A DNA stretch of 64,000 bases, from IMG/VR virus record IMGVR_UViG_3300027749_000058, positions 32,001 through 96,000 of that record. One strand, 5' to 3'. Under the pieces are notes generated by a model that saw only the letters and a program-made list of their open reading frames with translations, searched no databases and had not been told where the DNA came from. This stretch comes from a virus. Shown here in pieces: positions 6,184 to 32,009 of this stretch. Each line of letters begins with the position of its first letter. Within the stretch, counting starts at the first letter, position 1. The translations under genes and the position numbers were made by a program.

Positions 6184-6437
6184 ATTAATCCTCCTTGTTT
6201 TTTCCAGTCTTCTTCCATTTGGTTTCTACCTGAATTGTAATTACCGTAATCACCCCACATTTCTAATAAAGATTCGAATGCTTTTTTTAATTTATTGTAT
6301 TTTTCTTCTGATTCTTGTTGTCCTAATTGGTGAGATTGATACATACACTTAATTATTGACCTTTTATCTAAAAAAGAATGGTGTGGAATTGTGTTTTGAT
6401 ATATTTCTTCTAATTGTTTTTCTAATTTTTCATTCAT
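6180..6437 (-). CDS. hypothetical protein
   Basis: 85-aa ORF with ATGA overlaps on both sides. Confidence 0.65.
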   Translation of the reverse strand: MNEKLEKQLEEIYQNTIPHHSFLDKRSIIKCMYQSHQLGQQESEEKYNKLKKAFESLLEMWGDYGNYNSGRNQMEEDWKKQGGLI

Positions 6438-7522
6438 GGTTCAATCTCCTTTTGCCAAAATGGCTTTGTGTATTTTGGTCTAACTAACTTCCAAATGTAA
6501 TCAGAATAATCTTTATTATCAAACATTCTGAATAATATTGGTCTTAAAAATTCTTCTTGTATCATAACCCATTCAGCAATTTCTTTTTTTGGTGGTAATT
6601 CTCCATAACGAGGATGACCTGATAAGTTCTCAATAAAATTATCGTACAATTTGCCTGCATTCTCTTGAATACTCATTTTAGAATACCTAAGGTCTCTGAT
6701 TGTGGTTTTAACCCACTTATCAAATTCGTCAGGGACTCTATCAAGTAATTCATTAATATCTTTACCATCTTTCAAATACTCCCAAATATCAACATTTGAG
6801 AATCCAGTTAAGATTCTATGGAGACGAACATATTCATTTCCCTTTATTTTCATTCTGAACCCATTTCTAAACCGAATGACATAACCCTCACGGTATTTAT
6901 CGATCATTGATTTAAGGGTCTTATAATCACTAATTCCGTCATATGATTTAACGGTGGGCATATTGGTTTCCTCTCCAATTAACTTTAAAGAATTGTACTC
7001 TAACTCTTTTCCTGATGCGTTACTAATCATTGATAAAACAACTAAAGATTCGTCATCTCCATAATTCACGCATATCATATTTTGAGGATATATTATTTCA
7101 ACTAATGTGGTATATCCTTTTGGTATTGGATGAACATTGTATTTTGAATCTAAAATCTCTTTTCCTTTAATTGCTTGTTCAGAAGTAAAAGATCCTTTGC
7201 TTGATAATATCCATTTTCCTTCATACCAAAATAAAATACCTAATGAACCATCCAGTTTTTCAAATACTTCAAAAGGTTCATTTGGTATTTCTTCTGGTTT
7301 GTGTTCTTCGATATTAAAAAACTTATCAAACCCTTTGGCAATAACATTCCCTTCTTGGTCTAAAATAAGACCACGACATTGTTTGGTGATTTCATCCCAC
7401 TTATTTTCATACTGACAAGTACGAGAATAATTCCAAATAGAAATAGGAAGGGTCGGGTGGTTATTTTTAACCACCAAACCCTTCTCCAAATAATCATTTA
7501 ATATGTTTAAATCAAATTTCAT
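6434..7522 (-). CDS. T4 Rnl1-like RNA ligase
   Basis: CRGLILD, FDKFFN, adenylation motif EKLDGS, EGYVI, KIKG..Y. Confidence 0.9.
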   Translation of the reverse strand: MKFDLNILNDYLEKGLVVKNNHPTLPISIWNYSRTCQYENKWDEITKQCRGLILDQEGNVIAKGFDKFFNIEEHKPEEIPNEPFEVFEKLDGSLGILFWYEGKWILSSKGSFTSEQAIKGKEILDSKYNVHPIPKGYTTLVEIIYPQNMICVNYGDDESLVVLSMISNASGKELEYNSLKLIGEETNMPTVKSYDGISDYKTLKSMIDKYREGYVIRFRNGFRMKIKGNEYVRLHRILTGFSNVDIWEYLKDGKDINELLDRVPDEFDKWVKTTIRDLRYSKMSIQENAGKLYDNFIENLSGHPRYGELPPKKEIAEWVMIQEEFLRPILFRMFDNKDYSDYIWKLVRPKYTKPFWQKEIEP

Positions 7523-7767: not shown

Positions 7768-8175
7768 TTATAAAGAGATTTGAAATCTTTCTTTCATTTG
7801 TTTTATTTTTTCTTCAGGAACTCCATGAGTATTAACTCCTCCATGTCTATTTTCCACAATAATTGTATGAACTCTATACCCATATTTTTTTGCGATTATT
7901 TGATAAAATCTCATTTCCCATTCCTGAGTAAATGTATTAGATATTACAATATTACGAAAAAAAAGTGGTCTAAACAAGCTTGGGTGCATCCAATACTGAA
8001 CTTTTCTTTTGCACCAGTCATGGGCATCCTTAAGTTTTGAACCATCAAATTCATATTTACCATTTTTCATAAAGAATTGGTCAGCCTCAAATATTTGCCA
8101 AGGTTTCCCCAAGGATTTTGCAATTGTGGATTTGCCAGCACCTGGTAATCCTCTAATGATATATAAATTTTTCAT
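7768..8175 (-). CDS. P-loop kinase (AAA_33 / polynucleotide-kinase-like)
   Basis: IIRGLPGAGKST Walker A; EAD, SNTFT and HGVP motifs. Confidence 0.85.
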   Translation of the reverse strand: MKNLYIIRGLPGAGKSTIAKSLGKPWQIFEADQFFMKNGKYEFDGSKLKDAHDWCKRKVQYWMHPSLFRPLFFRNIVISNTFTQEWEMRFYQIIAKKYGYRVHTIIVENRHGGVNTHGVPEEKIKQMKERFQISL

Positions 8176-8552: not shown

Positions 8553-9197
8553 TTATATATCATCTAAATGATGATCACTTTTTAATGTGTTATATGATAT
8601 GGGTCTTCCTGATAATTTCCTTACAATATCATCAATATCATACGGCATCAAATCATTACCGTCCATACCAACATCCATAGATCTACCAGTCATATACTTT
8701 CCTTCTTTAGGTGTGTGTAGATGACCAAACAAATGGAATACACCTTTCTTCATATCGTGCCAAGAACAGATAGGATAATGACACATAATAAACCTGTGTG
8801 TAGTTTTATTGGTATACTCCAAGTGTAAGTAGTTTTGAACACTCGTAAATAACTTTTGAATGTCTCCTCTATTTCTTTCTATATGCGTATCATGATTACC
8901 GAGCACAAGATGTATTTCCTTACATATAATTCTATTACGAAACTCTTCAATCATTTCAAATCCACCAAAACTCCAATCTCCAAGATTTATTAAAATATCA
9001 TCTTGACCAACCGCCTCATTAATGTTATTCACAATAGCGGCATTCATTTTATCCAAAGTGGCAAAATCTCTAGTTTGTTTTTCTGGTACATCACCATTTG
9101 GTAACCTCCAATTAGTTATTCCTCGGCAGATATTTTTATGTGCATAGTGACAATCTGAAGTCAACCATACTTTTCTATCGTTATTAATCTTTATCAT
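8553..9197 (-). CDS. calcineurin-like metallophosphoesterase
   Basis: SDCH, LGD, GNHD, CHYP and GHLH motifs. Confidence 0.9.
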   Translation of the reverse strand: MIKINNDRKVWLTSDCHYAHKNICRGITNWRLPNGDVPEKQTRDFATLDKMNAAIVNNINEAVGQDDILINLGDWSFGGFEMIEEFRNRIICKEIHLVLGNHDTHIERNRGDIQKLFTSVQNYLHLEYTNKTTHRFIMCHYPICSWHDMKKGVFHLFGHLHTPKEGKYMTGRSMDVGMDGNDLMPYDIDDIVRKLSGRPISYNTLKSDHHLDDI

Positions 9198-9213
9198 AAA
9201 GCAAAGATAAGAA

Positions 9214-14539: not shown

Positions 14540-15472
14540 ATGTCAAAGAAATTTATAATTAACGAAGAAGAAAAATCAGAAATCTTAAAAAAACATATTG
14601 ATTTTAAAAAGGTCTTACAAGAAAAATTATCTAATTTAAATAGAGGATTGGTAAATGAGCAATTTAATACAGGAGTTACTAATGACCCATTATTAATGGC
14701 CGCTGAAAAAGCTAAATGTATTTCTGGTGGTAAATTCATTACTTGGGAAGGAAAACCTGGTTATTATAAAGTAGCAACCACAGATAGAGATGGGAGATAC
14801 TCAATTGGAGATAAACTTGTAATTTATAATGATTATACTTATGAGGTGTATCCTAAAGATCGTTCAAAAAGAAAACAATTTGTTTGGTCTTGTCCTCAAA
14901 TTAACCAAGATACTGAATTAAAAAAAGCTGAAGAACAACAAGGATTAACAACAAAACAAAAACAATTTAGTGACGGATTGGTTGCTCAAGGATATGTTAT
15001 TGATCCATCGCCATGGGATATCACATCTAAAAGACTTAAAAAAGCTGAAATAGAACAAATTCCAGGACTTGCAGATTTATTTCCAAATGGTTTAAATGTT
15101 TATTTTGACCCAACAAAAATAAAGGGAAGTAATATTACAGGATATAAAGACAGATCAGCATCAATGACACCTGACGTAAACTCTTGTAAAGATTTTGTTC
15201 AAACATATTTTAACGATTATAAAGGTGGCGGTGAAGGTAATCCACAAGATACCGAATTTGCTGACTTGAAAAATAAAGTTCAAGCTTGTGCAAATAAATG
15301 GTATCCTAAATGGTCAGGATTATCAGGTGGTGTTTTAGGAATCGGATCAGGTCAAAATCATTTGGATGATATGATAGACGTTTTAACAGGAGTTAAAACA
15401 AATTATGAAGGAGTTGGAATTCCATCAAGAACAACAGGTTGGGGATTAACACCTCCAAGAACAAAAAGATAA
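14540..15472 (+). CDS. putative virion internal protein
   Basis: N-terminus MSKKFIINEEEKSEILKKH, similar to other late proteins. Confidence 0.6.
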   Translation: MSKKFIINEEEKSEILKKHIDFKKVLQEKLSNLNRGLVNEQFNTGVTNDPLLMAAEKAKCISGGKFITWEGKPGYYKVATTDRDGRYSIGDKLVIYNDYTYEVYPKDRSKRKQFVWSCPQINQDTELKKAEEQQGLTTKQKQFSDGLVAQGYVIDPSPWDITSKRLKKAEIEQIPGLADLFPNGLNVYFDPTKIKGSNITGYKDRSASMTPDVNSCKDFVQTYFNDYKGGGEGNPQDTEFADLKNKVQACANKWYPKWSGLSGGVLGIGSGQNHLDDMIDVLTGVKTNYEGVGIPSRTTGWGLTPPRTKR

Positions 15473-17366: not shown

Positions 17367-17855
17367 TTAATAAACAAATGATTTTTGATATTCATTCCAA
17401 ACTTTTTGTAATCCATCTGTTTCATTTATTAATGATGGTATAAAGGGCTTATGTTTCATTACCAATTTGGCTTCTTCAGGAGTTTTACTTCCTTTTTTGA
17501 GATTACATTTAAAACATGATGTAACCAAGTTTGTCCATTCATTTCCCCCACCTTTAGATTTAGGGATTACGTGGTCTAATGTTAGTTCTTTTTTTGACCC
17601 ACAATAAACGCATTCGTGTCCATCTCTTTTATAAATTCTTGATCTATTGGCCCTTAAATTTTTGGCTTGATGTTTAATATATTTTAATAATCTAATAATT
17701 AGTGGGCGCAAAAATGTTTTATATCCGCTAACAATAGGGTTATCATCTGATTTAATTAATTCAGCCCTACCTTTATCAACCAATACAAAACCCCGCCTAA
17801 TAGTTGTTATATTAAGAGGGGTGTAGTCATAATTTAATACTAAAACACCGCTCAT
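17367..17855 (-). CDS. HNH endonuclease (McrA-like)
   Basis: RDGHECVYCG...TLDHVIPKSKGG...WTNLVTSCFKCNLKKG. Confidence 0.92.
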   Translation of the reverse strand: MSGVLVLNYDYTPLNITTIRRGFVLVDKGRAELIKSDDNPIVSGYKTFLRPLIIRLLKYIKHQAKNLRANRSRIYKRDGHECVYCGSKKELTLDHVIPKSKGGGNEWTNLVTSCFKCNLKKGSKTPEEAKLVMKHKPFIPSLINETDGLQKVWNEYQKSFVY

Positions 17856-20238: not shown

Positions 20239-20967
20239 ATGAAAAGAGATGTTAATTCAATAAAGGTCTTATCACCTGACGACAAAAAATATTTAAAAAA
20301 AGTTTCCAATTATCTTAATTCATTGGGAATGCAAGATGGTACCATTGAACTTGATTTTAGTGGAGAACGTGTAAGATTATCAGATATAAATTGGAACAGA
20401 GAAACCCATTTTACAAATAACTATAGCGCAGAAATTCCTGATGGACTATTACCAATTCTTCAAAAGATAATAAATTATATTGATGTAAATGATTTATACC
20501 AACAACTTGATGAAGATGTAAACTATGAAAGAATAGAAATAGATATTGATACAAAAACAAAAGAAATATCTGTTTCTCATTTTTATTCATATTATGATAG
20601 GGGTAATGAAAATTCAGTTGAATTTGATTCCCAAGAAGATTTGGAACAATTTGATGGGTGGGTAAGTGATGAATTTGCAACAATAGATATACCTGAAACA
20701 GGAATATTAACATTAAGGTATAATGGTGGTGGTGATTCAGGGTATATTGAAAATTCATTTGAAGAAAATGGTGACGCTGTTCCTGCTGAAATTGAAGATT
20801 GGTGTTATAGAGCCTTAGAACAAAACTTCGGTGGGTGGGAAATTAATGAAGGTTCCGATGGGGAATTCATTTTTGATTTTAATAATTCAATGGTTACTTT
20901 AAACCATACTATGAATACAGAAGAAAATGCAAGTAATACTCTTTATGAAGAAAGTTTTGCTGATTAA
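20239..20967 (+). CDS. protein with DUF6878-like C-terminal domain
   Basis: YNGGGDSGYIE...GGWEINEGSDGEF. Confidence 0.6.
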   Translation: MKRDVNSIKVLSPDDKKYLKKVSNYLNSLGMQDGTIELDFSGERVRLSDINWNRETHFTNNYSAEIPDGLLPILQKIINYIDVNDLYQQLDEDVNYERIEIDIDTKTKEISVSHFYSYYDRGNENSVEFDSQEDLEQFDGWVSDEFATIDIPETGILTLRYNGGGDSGYIENSFEENGDAVPAEIEDWCYRALEQNFGGWEINEGSDGEFIFDFNNSMVTLNHTMNTEENASNTLYEESFAD

Positions 20968-21026
20968 TTTTATTTAATAAAAAAACAAAGTTTAGAGATT
21001 TTCGTATATATTTGTATTTATTAGTA

Positions 21027-21884
21027 ATGACACGAATTATATCACTTACTGAATCTGAACTTATGAACGTTGTGAAAACAATTTTGGAACAAGTTAATCT
21101 TAATGATTATATTGCAGAAGATTTTGTAGAAGTTTCTCTTCATTATTTTAGACCATGGATTAAACAAACTCACGGTGAAGAAATTGGTCAATATCCATTA
21201 TCTTTTTTGATTAAAAAATATTTGGATGAATTTTGTGAAGACAAACATATTGATTTAGGTAGCACCTATTATTCTAATAATTATAATAAATTGGCCGCGG
21301 TTGGTAAATTAATTGTAAAAAAAGGACTTCATGAATTACCAAGCATGAAACCTAAAGGATTATTCACAGAAAAATATAAAAAAGGTATTACAGCACTACT
21401 TGATCGTTTGGATATTCCTGATTATATGGAACTTAAAATTACCGAACCAGAACCTTATAATGTTAAAATAAAAACATATATTAAATTTGAACCATTATTA
21501 AAATCTGAAAATAAATTATCGTCATCATCGGTAATTACAAACAAGTTAAGACAATCTTTTCAAGATTATTTGGGAGTTACCTATGGATTGCCATCTCATG
21601 GAGAATTGAATTTATATATTGATGATACACCAGTATATCTTGGTCAGGATGAATGGGTTAAAAATGTTTTTAATAAAGAACTTAAGAAAAAAATTAAAGA
21701 ACTTCCTGAGGCAAAATCAGTTTTACGTTCAATTAAACTTGATGTGAGTCCATATTTATATGCCACAATAAAATTAGGATTCAATAGCAGTTCAAGATGG
21801 AATAGTCAAAAAGAATTTAAAGTAAAAGTTATTGACCTTTTGAAAGAAATGGGATACAATACGTCAATATTAAAAGTAGAATGA
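21027..21884 (+). CDS. late hypothetical protein
   Basis: ATG at 21027 after TATTTAT; N-terminus MTRIISLTESEL. Confidence 0.7.
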   Translation: MTRIISLTESELMNVVKTILEQVNLNDYIAEDFVEVSLHYFRPWIKQTHGEEIGQYPLSFLIKKYLDEFCEDKHIDLGSTYYSNNYNKLAAVGKLIVKKGLHELPSMKPKGLFTEKYKKGITALLDRLDIPDYMELKITEPEPYNVKIKTYIKFEPLLKSENKLSSSSVITNKLRQSFQDYLGVTYGLPSHGELNLYIDDTPVYLGQDEWVKNVFNKELKKKIKELPEAKSVLRSIKLDVSPYLYATIKLGFNSSSRWNSQKEFKVKVIDLLKEMGYNTSILKVE

Positions 21885-21992
21885 TTAAAACAATTAAATC
21901 CCTTTTATAGGGATTTTTTATTTGTATTTATCAATAAAACCCTTATCTTTGTGGAAGAAATTACTCACCTATAATCTAAAGGTGGGGAATAC

Positions 21993-22092
21993 GGTTCGGT
22001 AGCTCAGCTGGATAGTAGCGACAGCCTTCTTGGTCTATATTTTAGTATTACCAAGAAGCTGTAGGTCATTGGTTCGAATCCAATCCGGATCA
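21993..22092 (+). tRNA. tRNA-Arg(UCU) with a 25-nt insertion in the anticodon loop
   Basis: ACAGC-CTTCT[tggtctatattttagtattaccaag]AA-GCTGT; near-normal D arm, GTTCGAATC T arm, GGTTCGG/CCGGATC acceptor. Confidence 0.85.
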
Positions 22093-22143
22093 CAAATGGA
22101 AATAATATTTTTTTAATCCATTTAAATATATTTATTATCTTTG

Positions 22144-22692: not shown

Positions 22693-22791
22693 ATGAACAC
22701 TACAATGCGTCATATAGTCTTTAGTAAACAACAAGAAACTTGTTGGTATCAGATTATGCCTTGTAGTTCAGATGGTGATTCTCAAAATTAG
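22693..22791 (+). CDS. attenuator leader peptide MNTTMRHIVFSKQQETCWYQIMPCSSDGDSQN
   Basis: 33-codon ORF just after the promoter with an A-rich 5' region; overlaps attenuator segments 1 and 2. Confidence 0.8.
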   Translation: MNTTMRHIVFSKQQETCWYQIMPCSSDGDSQN

Positions 22792-22817
22792 TTAATTCCT
22801 GATGTATATTTATATAC

Positions 22818-22962: not shown

Positions 22963-23178
22963 ATGAAATACGTTTTTAGAGGTCATGTTGTGTTTGAATA
23001 CAAACCAAATGATAAAAGAGATAAAGTGGTTCAAGGTAAGATTCATGATGCAATTCCAGCATTTGATTTTTGTCATATGATTCCTGAGGACTATAAATTG
23101 TTAGCAAAATTTTTCAACACAGTTTATAGGCATATTCAAGGAGAAGATGTACCTTTGGAAGATATAGAAGTGTATTAA
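22963..23178 (+). CDS. hypothetical protein
   Basis: ATG at 22963 after an A-rich region. Confidence 0.65.
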   Translation: MKYVFRGHVVFEYKPNDKRDKVVQGKIHDAIPAFDFCHMIPEDYKLLAKFFNTVYRHIQGEDVPLEDIEVY

Positions 23179-23179
23179 T

Positions 23180-23252
23180 GGTGCTCAAGCTAACTTGGTA
23201 GAAGCGAAAGACTGAAAATCTTTAGGACTCGGCTCGGAACCGAGGAGTACCA
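23180..23252 (+). tRNA. tRNA-Phe(GAA), atypical T-loop
   Basis: AAAGA-CTGAAAA-TCTTT; T arm CTCGG-CTCGGAA-CCGAG. Confidence 0.88.
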
Positions 23253-23327
23253 CGGAGTCCCGAAATAACGGGAAACCCCCACTCCCATATGGCAGCCAGT
23301 CCGTTAACCTGGTGAAGTGGGGTAGGA

Positions 23328-23429
23328 TGTTAAGTAGTGGATATGTAAGCGGGCTCAAGCTCGGTAAGTCAAAAAGGTTATGACGCTCTTTACGAGACCA
23401 CGTTGTCGGTTCGAGTCCGACCTTAACAA
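23328..23429 (+). ncRNA. tRNA-like RNA without a canonical anticodon arm
   Basis: TGTTAAG/CTTAACA acceptor, GTCGG-TTCGAGT-CCGAC T arm, GTGG/CCAC stem enclosing three small hairpins. Confidence 0.65.
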
Positions 23430-23502
23430 CAAAGACATCAACGGAGTATATTCACACTTAGGAAACTATGTAATGGTCAAAATTCTAATGATGTCTTTAA
23501 AT

Positions 23503-25981: not shown

Positions 25982-26053
25982 GGTGTTTGAAGCATTAAGG
26001 TGATGCACTAGTTTGTGGAGCTAGAAAAGACGGGTCGGTACCGTCCTTACACC
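25982..26053 (+). tRNA. tRNA-His(GUG), atypical T-loop
   Basis: CTAGT-TTGTGGA-GCTAG; G-1 and C73; T arm GACGG-GTCGGTA-CCGTC; two acceptor mismatches. Confidence 0.82.
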
Positions 26054-26089
26054 CATATTTTTTTTCTTAGTATCATACTATTTATATGT

Positions 26090-26551
26090 ATGGAAAAAAA
26101 AGTAACTCTAACCAAAGAACAATTATTCAAGGTGATGAACTTGAATGAGGCTGAAAATAAAAAAGAAAAAAATGAAACATCTGATGTTGTTGATATGATT
26201 GCAACATTACTTCATTCAAGAAGCCAAACTCATATTTTTCATTGGCAAACAAAATCACAATCATCATTTGCTGAACATATGGCATTAGGAACTTATTATG
26301 ATGAAATTGTTGGACTAATTGATGGTATTGTTGAAAGTTATCAAGGAAAATATGAAATAATTACAGGATACAAAACAGTTGAAATGGTTGATTACAAATC
26401 AACAGAACAATTAATAAGTTACTTTAGAGAATTAGATAGCAATATTGAAAAAAATAGAAAGGGGATTAAAGAATCTTATATTCAAAATCAAATTGACGGA
26501 CTTCAAGAGTTAATTTTTTCTACATTATATAAATTAAGATTCTTGAAATAA
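26090..26551 (+). CDS. ferritin/Dps-like protein (DUF5856-like)
   Basis: HIFHWQT...AEHMALGTYYD...DGIVESYQG...LYKLRFL; ATG after TATTTATA at 26079. Confidence 0.75.
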   Translation: MEKKVTLTKEQLFKVMNLNEAENKKEKNETSDVVDMIATLLHSRSQTHIFHWQTKSQSSFAEHMALGTYYDEIVGLIDGIVESYQGKYEIITGYKTVEMVDYKSTEQLISYFRELDSNIEKNRKGIKESYIQNQIDGLQELIFSTLYKLRFLK

Positions 26552-31945: not shown

Positions 31946-32009
31946 TTTGTAATGATAATAAAATAAATGAAATAAAAAAGGGTTCAAAATAGAACCCTTT
32001 TTTATTATG

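Follow-up and report, generated by a model that had tools for sequence, protein, structure and literature searches.

In the textbook view, the introns of bacterial transfer RNA (tRNA) genes are group I ribozymes, while protein-catalysed tRNA splicing is a matter of archaea and eukaryotes. To our knowledge, every tRNA intron described from bacteria so far is of the self-splicing group I type. Here, we analysed a 64,000-nt stretch of viral DNA (IMG/VR record IMGVR_UViG_3300027749_000058, positions 32,001 to 96,000; referred to as the window) that carries a tRNA-Arg(UCU) gene at positions 21993-22092, interrupted by a 25-nt hairpin directly after the anticodon, i.e. between nucleotides 36 and 37. 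Judging from comparative sequence data, this insert is probably a tRNA intron that is spliced by proteins.

Several described systems resemble this locus in part. Bacterial group I tRNA introns (that of cyanobacterial tRNA-Leu(UAA) and others) share the anticodon-loop site and the patchy distribution, but are self-splicing ribozymes of more than 200 nt with a P3-P9 core, whereas the insert lacks any catalytic fold. The bulge-helix-bulge (BHB) introns of archaea and eukaryotes are likewise short and anticodon-adjacent, pair with anticodon bases and need an endonuclease and a ligase. They differ in their canonical site (37|38, one position off the 36|37 found here), in their fold (two 3-nt bulges and a 4-bp helix, as opposed to a continuous helix) and in their enzymes, as they are processed by EndA/Sen together with RtcB or Trl1 and no EndA/Sen gene was found in the carriers searched here. 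The ligase domain of Trl1 and T4 Rnl1 are members of one nucleotidyltransferase superfamily. RNase III excises the intervening sequences of 23S rRNA from a stable RNA; there, the rRNA stays fragmented, and mRNA substrates are merely processed, whereas here the exons must be ligated and cleavage is a prediction. RNase III hairpins such as T7 R1.1 and the minimal uR1.1 (PMC1540722) have their cut sites roughly one helical turn from the loop, the spacing predicted here, and are cut in a staggered manner that leaves 2-nt 3′ overhangs. The repair of PrrC damage by Pnkp and Rnl1 in T4 involves the same ligase family, a nick in the anticodon loop and kinase, phosphatase and ligase genes that lie together, but deals with damage done by a host nuclease to a host tRNA, 5′ of the wobble base, rather than with two programmed cuts in the phage's own tRNA. 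Finally, the 'enigmatic' tRNA introns of Lak megaphages (79-114 nt, including a T-arm-bearing, tRNA-like minihelix; Devoto et al. 2019, PMC6784885, Table S6) also interrupt the anticodon loop of phage tRNA genes in phages of Bacteroidota hosts, are present or absent in close relatives with their sequence conserved, as is the case here (see below), and have neither a self-splicing fold nor a known mechanism; by our own reading of the exon context in Table S6, they appear at 36|37 as well. The insert in the window differs from them in being a bare 25-nt hairpin that prolongs the anticodon stem, and has no sequence similarity to them. Full-text literature searches did not turn up any account of hairpin introns in bacterial or phage tRNAs whose removal depends on proteins.

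The locus in the window is a genuine tRNA-Arg(UCU) gene. ARAGORN, when introns were allowed, called a tRNA-Arg(tct) with a 25-nt intron at 21993-22093, while its default mode returned no call for the interrupted gene, and the Rfam tRNA model RF00005 matched across the full 100 nt with 45.3 bits (gathering score 29). Removing positions 22031-22055 restored a canonical cloverleaf with the arm ACAGC-CU-UCU-AA-GCUGU, whose 7-nt anticodon loop C-U-UCU-A-A has U33 and a purine at 37 and is the same as in an uninterrupted ortholog. A 7-bp acceptor stem and a T-arm with GTTCGAATC are present, CCA is not encoded, and the D-stem has 3 bp (GCT/AGC) and one extra base, an odd D-arm that recurs in two related phage contigs (L020 and L032). 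An earlier note, made by a model from the letters of the window and a list of its open reading frames (ORFs), had already proposed a tRNA-Arg(UCU) with a 25-nt insertion, this arm upon its removal, and perfect pairing over the anticodon, all of which these results bear out. Indeed, CTTCTTGGT (22026-22034) and ACCAAGAAG (22050-22058) are reverse complements of each other without a mismatch. The minimum-energy fold has a bulged C32 and an 8-bp helix that stacks on the 5-bp anticodon stem, followed distally by a 2x1 internal loop, 4 more bp and a tetraloop, so that anticodon stem and insert form a predicted 17-bp rod (-18 kcal/mol for the anticodon arm; z = -4.4; equalled by 0/200 shuffles). Within it, the first four nucleotides of the insert, TGGT, pair with ACCA (22050-22053), and its final two, AG (22054-22055), pair with C35 and U36 of the anticodon.

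In both the minimum-energy and the centroid fold, the two junctions lie inside a continuous 8-9-bp helix, in agreement with the earlier note's statement that there is no bulge-helix-bulge. The same note had judged the insert far too short to be a group I intron, and at E ≤ 1 it matched none of the Rfam intron families. Self-splicing by a very small ribozyme, or with the aid of the tRNA body, would keep the insert in line with the other bacterial tRNA introns known to us. We consider it hardly credible, given that 25 nt is far below the size of any known self-splicing intron, that no Rfam ribozyme family matched either, and that the loops are unconserved between lineages, the helix alone being kept.

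Comparison with related phages fixed the boundaries of the insert. When viral contigs were searched for the anticodon arm, allowing a gap of variable length, 45 uninterrupted genes and one interrupted relative, L020, were recovered. The ortholog in L032 has no insert (72/75 identical) and shares its 3′ flank with L020. The two contigs are 93% identical and colinear through the locus, where they differ by exactly a 26-nt insert, and their alignment has no microhomology or shared bases at the insert edges. The edges are thus unambiguous, which places the insertion site at 36|37. Identity between the window and L020 is 78-92% in coding regions, and the flanks of the tRNA defy alignment, but tRNA plus insert are 98% identical; at a background identity of 81%, the chance of 25 unchanged nucleotides is 0.81^25 = 0.005. 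A more distant phage, G009, shares genes with the window at ~70% nucleotide identity, including the Rnl1 region, and retains a homologous intron with an unchanged loop, in which two stem pairs are compensatorily altered (TGGT/ACCA to CAGT/ACTG). A near-identity search of the region against GenBank phages gave no match. Taken together, the insert appears to be under selection in relatives that are ~70-80% identical. The earlier note had called for such a comparison of orthologs for insertion position and compensatory changes; it had missed that the site is 36|37 rather than the canonical 37|38, as well as the RNase III-type geometry and the occurrence in cellular genomes described below.

The same note had reserved the verdict of a pseudogene for an insertion that is unique to this genome, free of covariation and without a processed or charged product, whereas the insert recurs and keeps compensatory changes in its stem. 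A selfish palindromic DNA element or a replication accident, leaving a pseudogene or tolerated because the host supplies tRNA-Arg(UCU), would account for the palindromic insert and for its presence and absence in close relatives, and an AT-rich Bacteroidota host probably has a tRNA-Arg(UCU) of its own. Even so, this origin is very improbable: elsewhere in the 111-kb contig, a search for the insert as a dispersed repeat returned AT-rich noise alone, compensatory changes were maintained over the above distance while intergenic flanks decayed, an identical site and register with unrelated loops is found in at least eight lineages, and in one bacterial genome (G041, below) the interrupted gene is the sole decoder of AGA found.

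Viral contigs and then metagenomes were scanned for genes of the tRNA-Arg(UCU) type in which an insert of 18-45 nt, whatever its sequence, follows the anticodon; this yielded 12 well-formed interrupted genes. Most have a common architecture, in which the insert ends in an AG that pairs with C35 and U36, its first bases pair with those just before this AG, and the helix extends from U33-A38 across both junctions without a break and into a distal hairpin. The introns are typically 24-28 nt long. In the seven distinct sequences of class A, the intron pairs i1-i4, which the scan patterns left unconstrained, are Watson-Crick in 28/28 cells with 2-3 pair types per position, a count matched by 0/20,000 shuffles, and slid registers give 8-13. 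G009 further carries a tRNA-Leu(UAA) gene with a 26-nt insert at 36|37, in the same register, that ends in UU opposite A35 and A36. Thus, the last two bases of the insert track the anticodon (AG for UCU, UU for UAA).

The design is also present in cultured phages. One viral carrier (G003) is the T4-like Aeromonas phage PX29, to which AsFcp_1 and AsFcp_2 are identical at the interrupted gene; Ah1 and avDM12-TAAL have a 79%-identical version with compensatory changes in both anticodon stem and intron helix. The gene of PX29 (101161-101261) is labelled in GenBank as a two-piece 'tRNA-Lys', but reads as Arg(UCU), so that the label is most likely wrong; across the cultured Aeromonas phages, the design is annotated as a joined 'tRNA-Lys' or not at all. 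Petrov et al. 2010 do not comment on the interrupted gene of PX29. L089 and L132 had no match among GenBank phages. A fast tRNA search missed the interrupted gene in G001, and absence from such searches is therefore weak evidence. Several candidates were discarded: L017, L129, L131, L133 and most of the 76 + 26 pattern matches are chance matches rather than tRNAs, and Campylobacter phage matches to the 5′ exon are ordinary 74-nt tRNA-Arg genes. Genes with a 37|38 or ambiguous junction (Arg and Lys in L057/L073, Arg and Gln in L069, Asn in L003) have another architecture and were kept out.

Some of the latter form a second class of short phage tRNA introns. In L057 (6405-6670) and L073 (2626-2893), tRNA-Arg(UCU) and tRNA-Lys(UUU) genes lie next to each other, and both are interrupted at or near 37|38 by a GC-rich hairpin of 18-23 nt that leaves the anticodon stem unextended; the genes in L069 and L003 are similar in look. 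In a 2.2-kb lake contig (L159, 729-1038), an uninterrupted and a hairpin-interrupted tRNA-Arg(UCU) stand side by side in a small tRNA array, the intron stem of the latter being homologous to that of phage G007 (L089). On the minus strand of G009 (L126/L127), five tRNA-like genes (15040-15149, 20371-20474, 20534-20644, 22718-22806 and 23069-23144) have nearly the same acceptor stem (AGTCAGG...CCTGACT) and T-arm, but oversized central regions that all differ, and give the impression of a single phage's family of tRNA-shaped, non-canonical RNAs. PX29 contains a tRNA-Val(CAC) gene with a 692-nt insert and an apparent ORF (of group I intron or homing-endonuclease type) and two odd 120-nt tRNA-like genes (91928-92692, 83774-83893 and 84043-84162, respectively; minus strand).

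The hairpin design is not confined to phages. Among species-representative bacterial genomes, it was found in four termite-gut Treponema metagenome-assembled genomes (MAGs), one Chitinophagaceae and one Fimbriimonadales genome, as solitary genes outside tRNA arrays. They are flanked by housekeeping genes, which in Treponema encode FlaA, RelA/SpoT and V-ATPase subunits D, B and A, and in the Chitinophagaceae genome an SDR, topoisomerase IB and dehydrogenases; the Treponema loci are syntenic and carry inserts of 0, 28 or 43 nt. In the 7.4-Mb Chitinophagaceae genome (G041), each of the 20 amino acids has a tRNA; the Arg set consists of ACG (two copies), CCG, CCU and the interrupted UCU gene, which is the sole tRNA-Arg(UCU) found. 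In the Treponema genome G040, which is incomplete, the interrupted gene is likewise the only tRNA-Arg(UCU) found. Among phages, it is the only tRNA-Arg of PX29 (~26 tRNAs) and of the complete phage G007. In the window's contig, which is rated ~37% complete, the interrupted gene is again the sole tRNA-Arg, and AGA makes up 74% of the phage's Arg codons. As the interrupted gene is the only AGA decoder found in G041 and the only tRNA-Arg in two complete phages, the insert would have to come out there if the tRNA is to decode, and is almost certainly removed; together with its length of 25 nt and the lack of both a bulge-helix-bulge and EndA/Sen, this would imply an enzymatic splicing route.

Of the two readings offered by the earlier note, a protein-spliced intron has thus gained from the intron-less sister allele, the covariation, the recurrence and the sole-decoder status, whereas nothing specific was added in favour of a masked or decoy tRNA. 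An unspliced RNA that functions as it is, be it as a decoy or sponge for a nuclease or defence protein, as a masked reserve or in a non-decoding role, would make sense of an anticodon fully buried in a stable predicted helix, of RNA-repair genes in the phage that are typical of tRNA-cleavage conflicts, and of the other non-canonical tRNA-like genes in the same array. It has no need, however, for an exact CU-UCU-AA loop or for an insert end that follows the anticodon (AG with UCU, UU with UAA), and sits poorly with the plain tRNA at the same locus in the sister phage L032, with the sole-gene status just described and with the ordinary chromosomal contexts in bacteria. We regard it as quite improbable.

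How might a protein-spliced intron be excised? The junctions U36|U(i1) and G(i25)|A37 are offset by 2 bp, and cuts at both would leave 2-nt 3′ overhangs on both products; the folds predict such an overhang in 15/16 class members. The proximal segment measures 9 bp in 16/16 examples, and the 5′ cut would lie 10-11 nt from the loop, the class mode, in 12/16. In the window, 8 bp and the 2x1 internal loop (10 nt on the 5′ strand) separate the 5′ cut from the loop, and 12 nt the 3′ cut. As modelled, this geometry fits the product pattern of RNase III. On the route that we infer for intron removal, for the nuclease that cuts and for the ligase that seals, a pre-tRNA would be transcribed from its own promoter, and in it the intron would prolong the anticodon stem, giving a continuous rod of ~17-20 layers in which the anticodon is hidden. 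This rod would be cut at the two junctions, 2 bp apart, by an endonuclease specific for double strands (most likely host RNase III), leaving 5′-phosphate and 3′-OH ends that Rnl1 could seal without prior healing. The 25-nt hairpin would leave, and the phage Rnl1 would seal the nicked anticodon loop to give a normal tRNA-Arg(UCU) that reads AGA. For the insert itself, we hold this RNase III and Rnl1 route to be plausible, if somewhat short of an even bet on the present sequence data. The wider proposal, namely that bacteria and phages own a tRNA-splicing pathway in which a 36|37 hairpin makes the anticodon arm a minimal substrate of RNase III and the loop is resealed by a ligase of the Rnl1 type, we put at roughly one chance in three.

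Further observations bear on the RNase III and Rnl1 route, most of them against it. Once an insertion lies at 36|37, the helix is continuous and the loop reads CUUCUAA or CUUAAAA, with U33-U34 able to pair with A37-A38, the 2-nt stagger arises automatically and therefore does not count as separate evidence for RNase III; independent are the insertion site and the helix with its length. For the E. coli enzyme, a minimum of ~11 bp between cut site and tetraloop was measured (PMC1540722), and the distal helix in the window, 8 bp plus the 2x1 loop, is at or just under this minimum. At i1, which adjoins the 5′ scissile bond, four class-A members (but not the window, with U-A) have a C-G pair, which at that position can suppress cleavage by E. 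coli RNase III (PMC1540722). In favour of the route, RNase III is encoded in 5/5 bacterial carriers; a search of the window's contig and of 10 related or carrier phage contigs, on the other hand, revealed no gene for it, so that a host enzyme would have to cut. Also in its favour, Rnl1 occurs in 5/10 intron-carrying viral contigs (2/2 complete ones) versus 2/28 controls (Fisher p = 0.008), yet this enrichment is gone among contigs of at least 100 kb (4/6 versus 2/6, p = 0.28). In bacteria, and again in favour of the route, Rnl1 is present in 3/5 carriers as compared to 0/14 reference genomes and 2/150 other Chitinophagaceae; for Treponemataceae, the Rnl1 background was unusable, as the large run missed the 45-bit match of G039 itself. 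The prediction that other Rnl1-bearing Chitinophagaceae (G078 and G113) carry the intron failed, both being without an Arg(UCU) intron. Finally, the kinase and phosphoesterase beside Rnl1 fit a route via cyclic phosphates equally well.

On that alternative route, a true intron would be cut by a metal-independent endoribonuclease, which leaves a 2′,3′-cyclic phosphate and a 5′-OH; kinase and phosphoesterase would then heal the ends for Rnl1 to seal, in the manner of the Pnkp and Rnl1 repair of T4, or the host's RtcB would seal them directly. The enzyme inventory bears on this point. The earlier note had listed an Rnl1 ligase, a kinase and phosphatases, and the window does encode an Rnl1-family ligase, an AAA_33 kinase and a metallophosphoesterase in one cassette (Table 1). 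The ligase ORF aligns to T4 Rnl1 (PDB 2C5U; E = 6e-12) with KLDG, EGYV and KIK conserved (nucleotidyltransferase motifs I (KxDG), IV and V), but its last ~108 residues remained unaligned by phmmer; in T4 Rnl1, it is the C-terminal domain that gives a preference for nicks in the tRNA anticodon loop. The kinase did not match any solved structure. RtcB, Rnl2 and EndA were not found in the window's contig (~37% complete), while RtcB is present in 3/5 bacterial carriers, and in the Chitinophagaceae carrier a T4-type Pnkp adjoins Rnl1. Besides these enzymes, all evidence for intron removal applies equally to a cyclic-phosphate route. It lacks, on the other hand, a candidate nuclease: the EndA/Sen family (PF01974) had 0 matches in the window's contig, two complete carrier phages and five bacterial carriers, with archaeal controls positive. 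Moreover, the junctions lie in a perfectly paired helix, where single-strand-specific nucleases are inactive unless it opens; the Rnl1 gene of one Treponema carrier stands alone in the chromosome, flanked by citrate synthase and a response regulator rather than by a healing enzyme; and phage heal-and-seal cassettes commonly counter anticodon nucleases, so that the cassette may be unrelated to the intron. On balance, we consider cleavage to cyclic phosphates unlikely, though deserving of serious attention. One further candidate was dismissed: the '57B RNA ligase' adjoining the interrupted tRNA gene in PX29 and Ah1 is the anti-CBASS phosphodiesterase Acb1, and its adjacency to the tRNA is thus without meaning. 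In an island of G041 (L255, C2:293000-305177), a WYL regulator, a 120-nt tRNA-like gene with a large insertion (L227), a 793-aa protein, a Hypoth_Ymh protein, Rnl1 and T4-type Pnkp lie together, i.e. an RNA damage/repair module beside an oversized tRNA-like gene.

The window belongs to a 110,935-bp IMG/VR viral contig with 30% GC, whose size and estimated completeness suggest a phage genome of ~300 kb, and its tRNA-Arg(UCU) gene sits in an array of 12 tRNA genes. The exons are 65/75 identical to a Chitinophagaceae tRNA-Arg(UCU), which fits a Bacteroidota host. The earlier note's assignment of an own promoter near 21944 is plausible, as the octamer TATCTTTG there has a TTTG 19 nt upstream and a terminator-like site before it (Table 1), of a kind found twice versus 0.2 expected in shuffles. 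The octamer fits a Bacteroides-type -7 element, whose consensus we take to be TAnnTTTG. It has 12 copies in the window, only 2.2-fold above the 5.4 expected (a count of 12 was reached in 0/100 shuffles), and its copies cluster before tRNAs, as upstream of tRNA-Thr (19495); another precedes the repair cassette (9202-9209, minus strand), and in L020 and L032 the same octamer lies 14 nt upstream of the tRNA. A Bacteroides-type octamer that is enriched and placed before tRNAs makes the promoter plausible and the host probably a member of the Bacteroidota.

Table 1. Features of the window discussed in the text (tRNA numbering for nucleotides in the anticodon arm)
Feature	Positions	Strand	Basis or content
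Rnl1-family RNA ligase, candidate exon sealer	6434-7522	-	PF09511, E = 2.8e-20, 73.6 bits (cut-off 28.3)
P-loop kinase (AAA_33), candidate 5′-OH polynucleotide kinase	7768-8175	-	E = 1.5e-9
Calcineurin-like metallophosphoesterase, candidate 3′-end healing phosphatase	8553-9197	-	TATCTTTG just upstream (9202-9209, minus strand)
Terminator-like hairpin, ends upstream gene 21012-21884	21896-21916	+	8-bp stem followed by T-run
Candidate Bacteroidota-type promoter: TTTG (21921-21924), 19-nt spacer, TATCTTTG (21944-21951)	21921-21951	+	Motif match
5′ exon	21993-22030	+	Acceptor, D-arm, 5′ strand of anticodon stem, C32, U33, anticodon TCT (22028-22030)
Probable hairpin mini-intron, 25 nt, between nt 36 and 37	22031-22055	+	Ortholog alignment and fold
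3′ exon	22056-22092	+	A37, A38, 3′ strand of anticodon stem, variable loop, T-arm, 3′ strand of acceptor, discriminator A

Several neighbouring elements deserve mention. The 290-aa ORF directly upstream of tRNA-Arg (21012-21884, plus strand) belongs to no Pfam family and is an insertion relative to L020 and L032; the only relatives found (40% identity) are encoded in the viral contigs L050 and L051, where no tRNA genes are close by. An HNH endonuclease gene at the border of the tRNA array (17367-17855, minus strand) may be of the homing type and drive allele exchange in the tRNA region, as SegB does in T4. A 102-nt tRNA-like gene (23328-23429, plus strand; Rfam tRNA 26 bits, below threshold) combines a 7-bp acceptor stem and a good T-arm with one long central arm in place of the D- and anticodon arms, and lies within a 173-nt stretch (23325-23497) that is absent from L020 and L032. 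After tRNA-Phe, a 75-nt non-coding stretch (23250-23324, plus strand) is 97-99% identical in three related phages, with neighbouring DNA at ~80%; it had no Rfam match, and its fold was not significant (z = -0.8). A weak tRNA-like match with a 4-bp acceptor (25983-26053, plus strand; 32.4 bits, above the Rfam gathering score in a local search) overlaps the start of ORF 26015-26551 (DUF5856).

For genome annotation, the finding means that inventories of phages and MAGs undercount tRNA-Arg(UCU), because standard bacterial-mode tRNA finders miss these genes. Since cultured Aeromonas phages (PX29, AsFcp_1/2 and Ah1) carry the design, the question is directly open to experiment. A 25-nt hairpin that is unable to self-splice, placed in a sole decoder, implies enzymatic splicing in the bacterial world. 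If RNase III and Rnl1 were indeed responsible, two well-known enzymes would gain a new joint function, tRNA splicing would have a third protein-based form, and the T4 Rnl1 family would have a native role outside repair, which could explain why some bacteria keep this rare gene. Phages, in that case, may gate the maturation of their main arginine tRNA on a ligase that they encode themselves.

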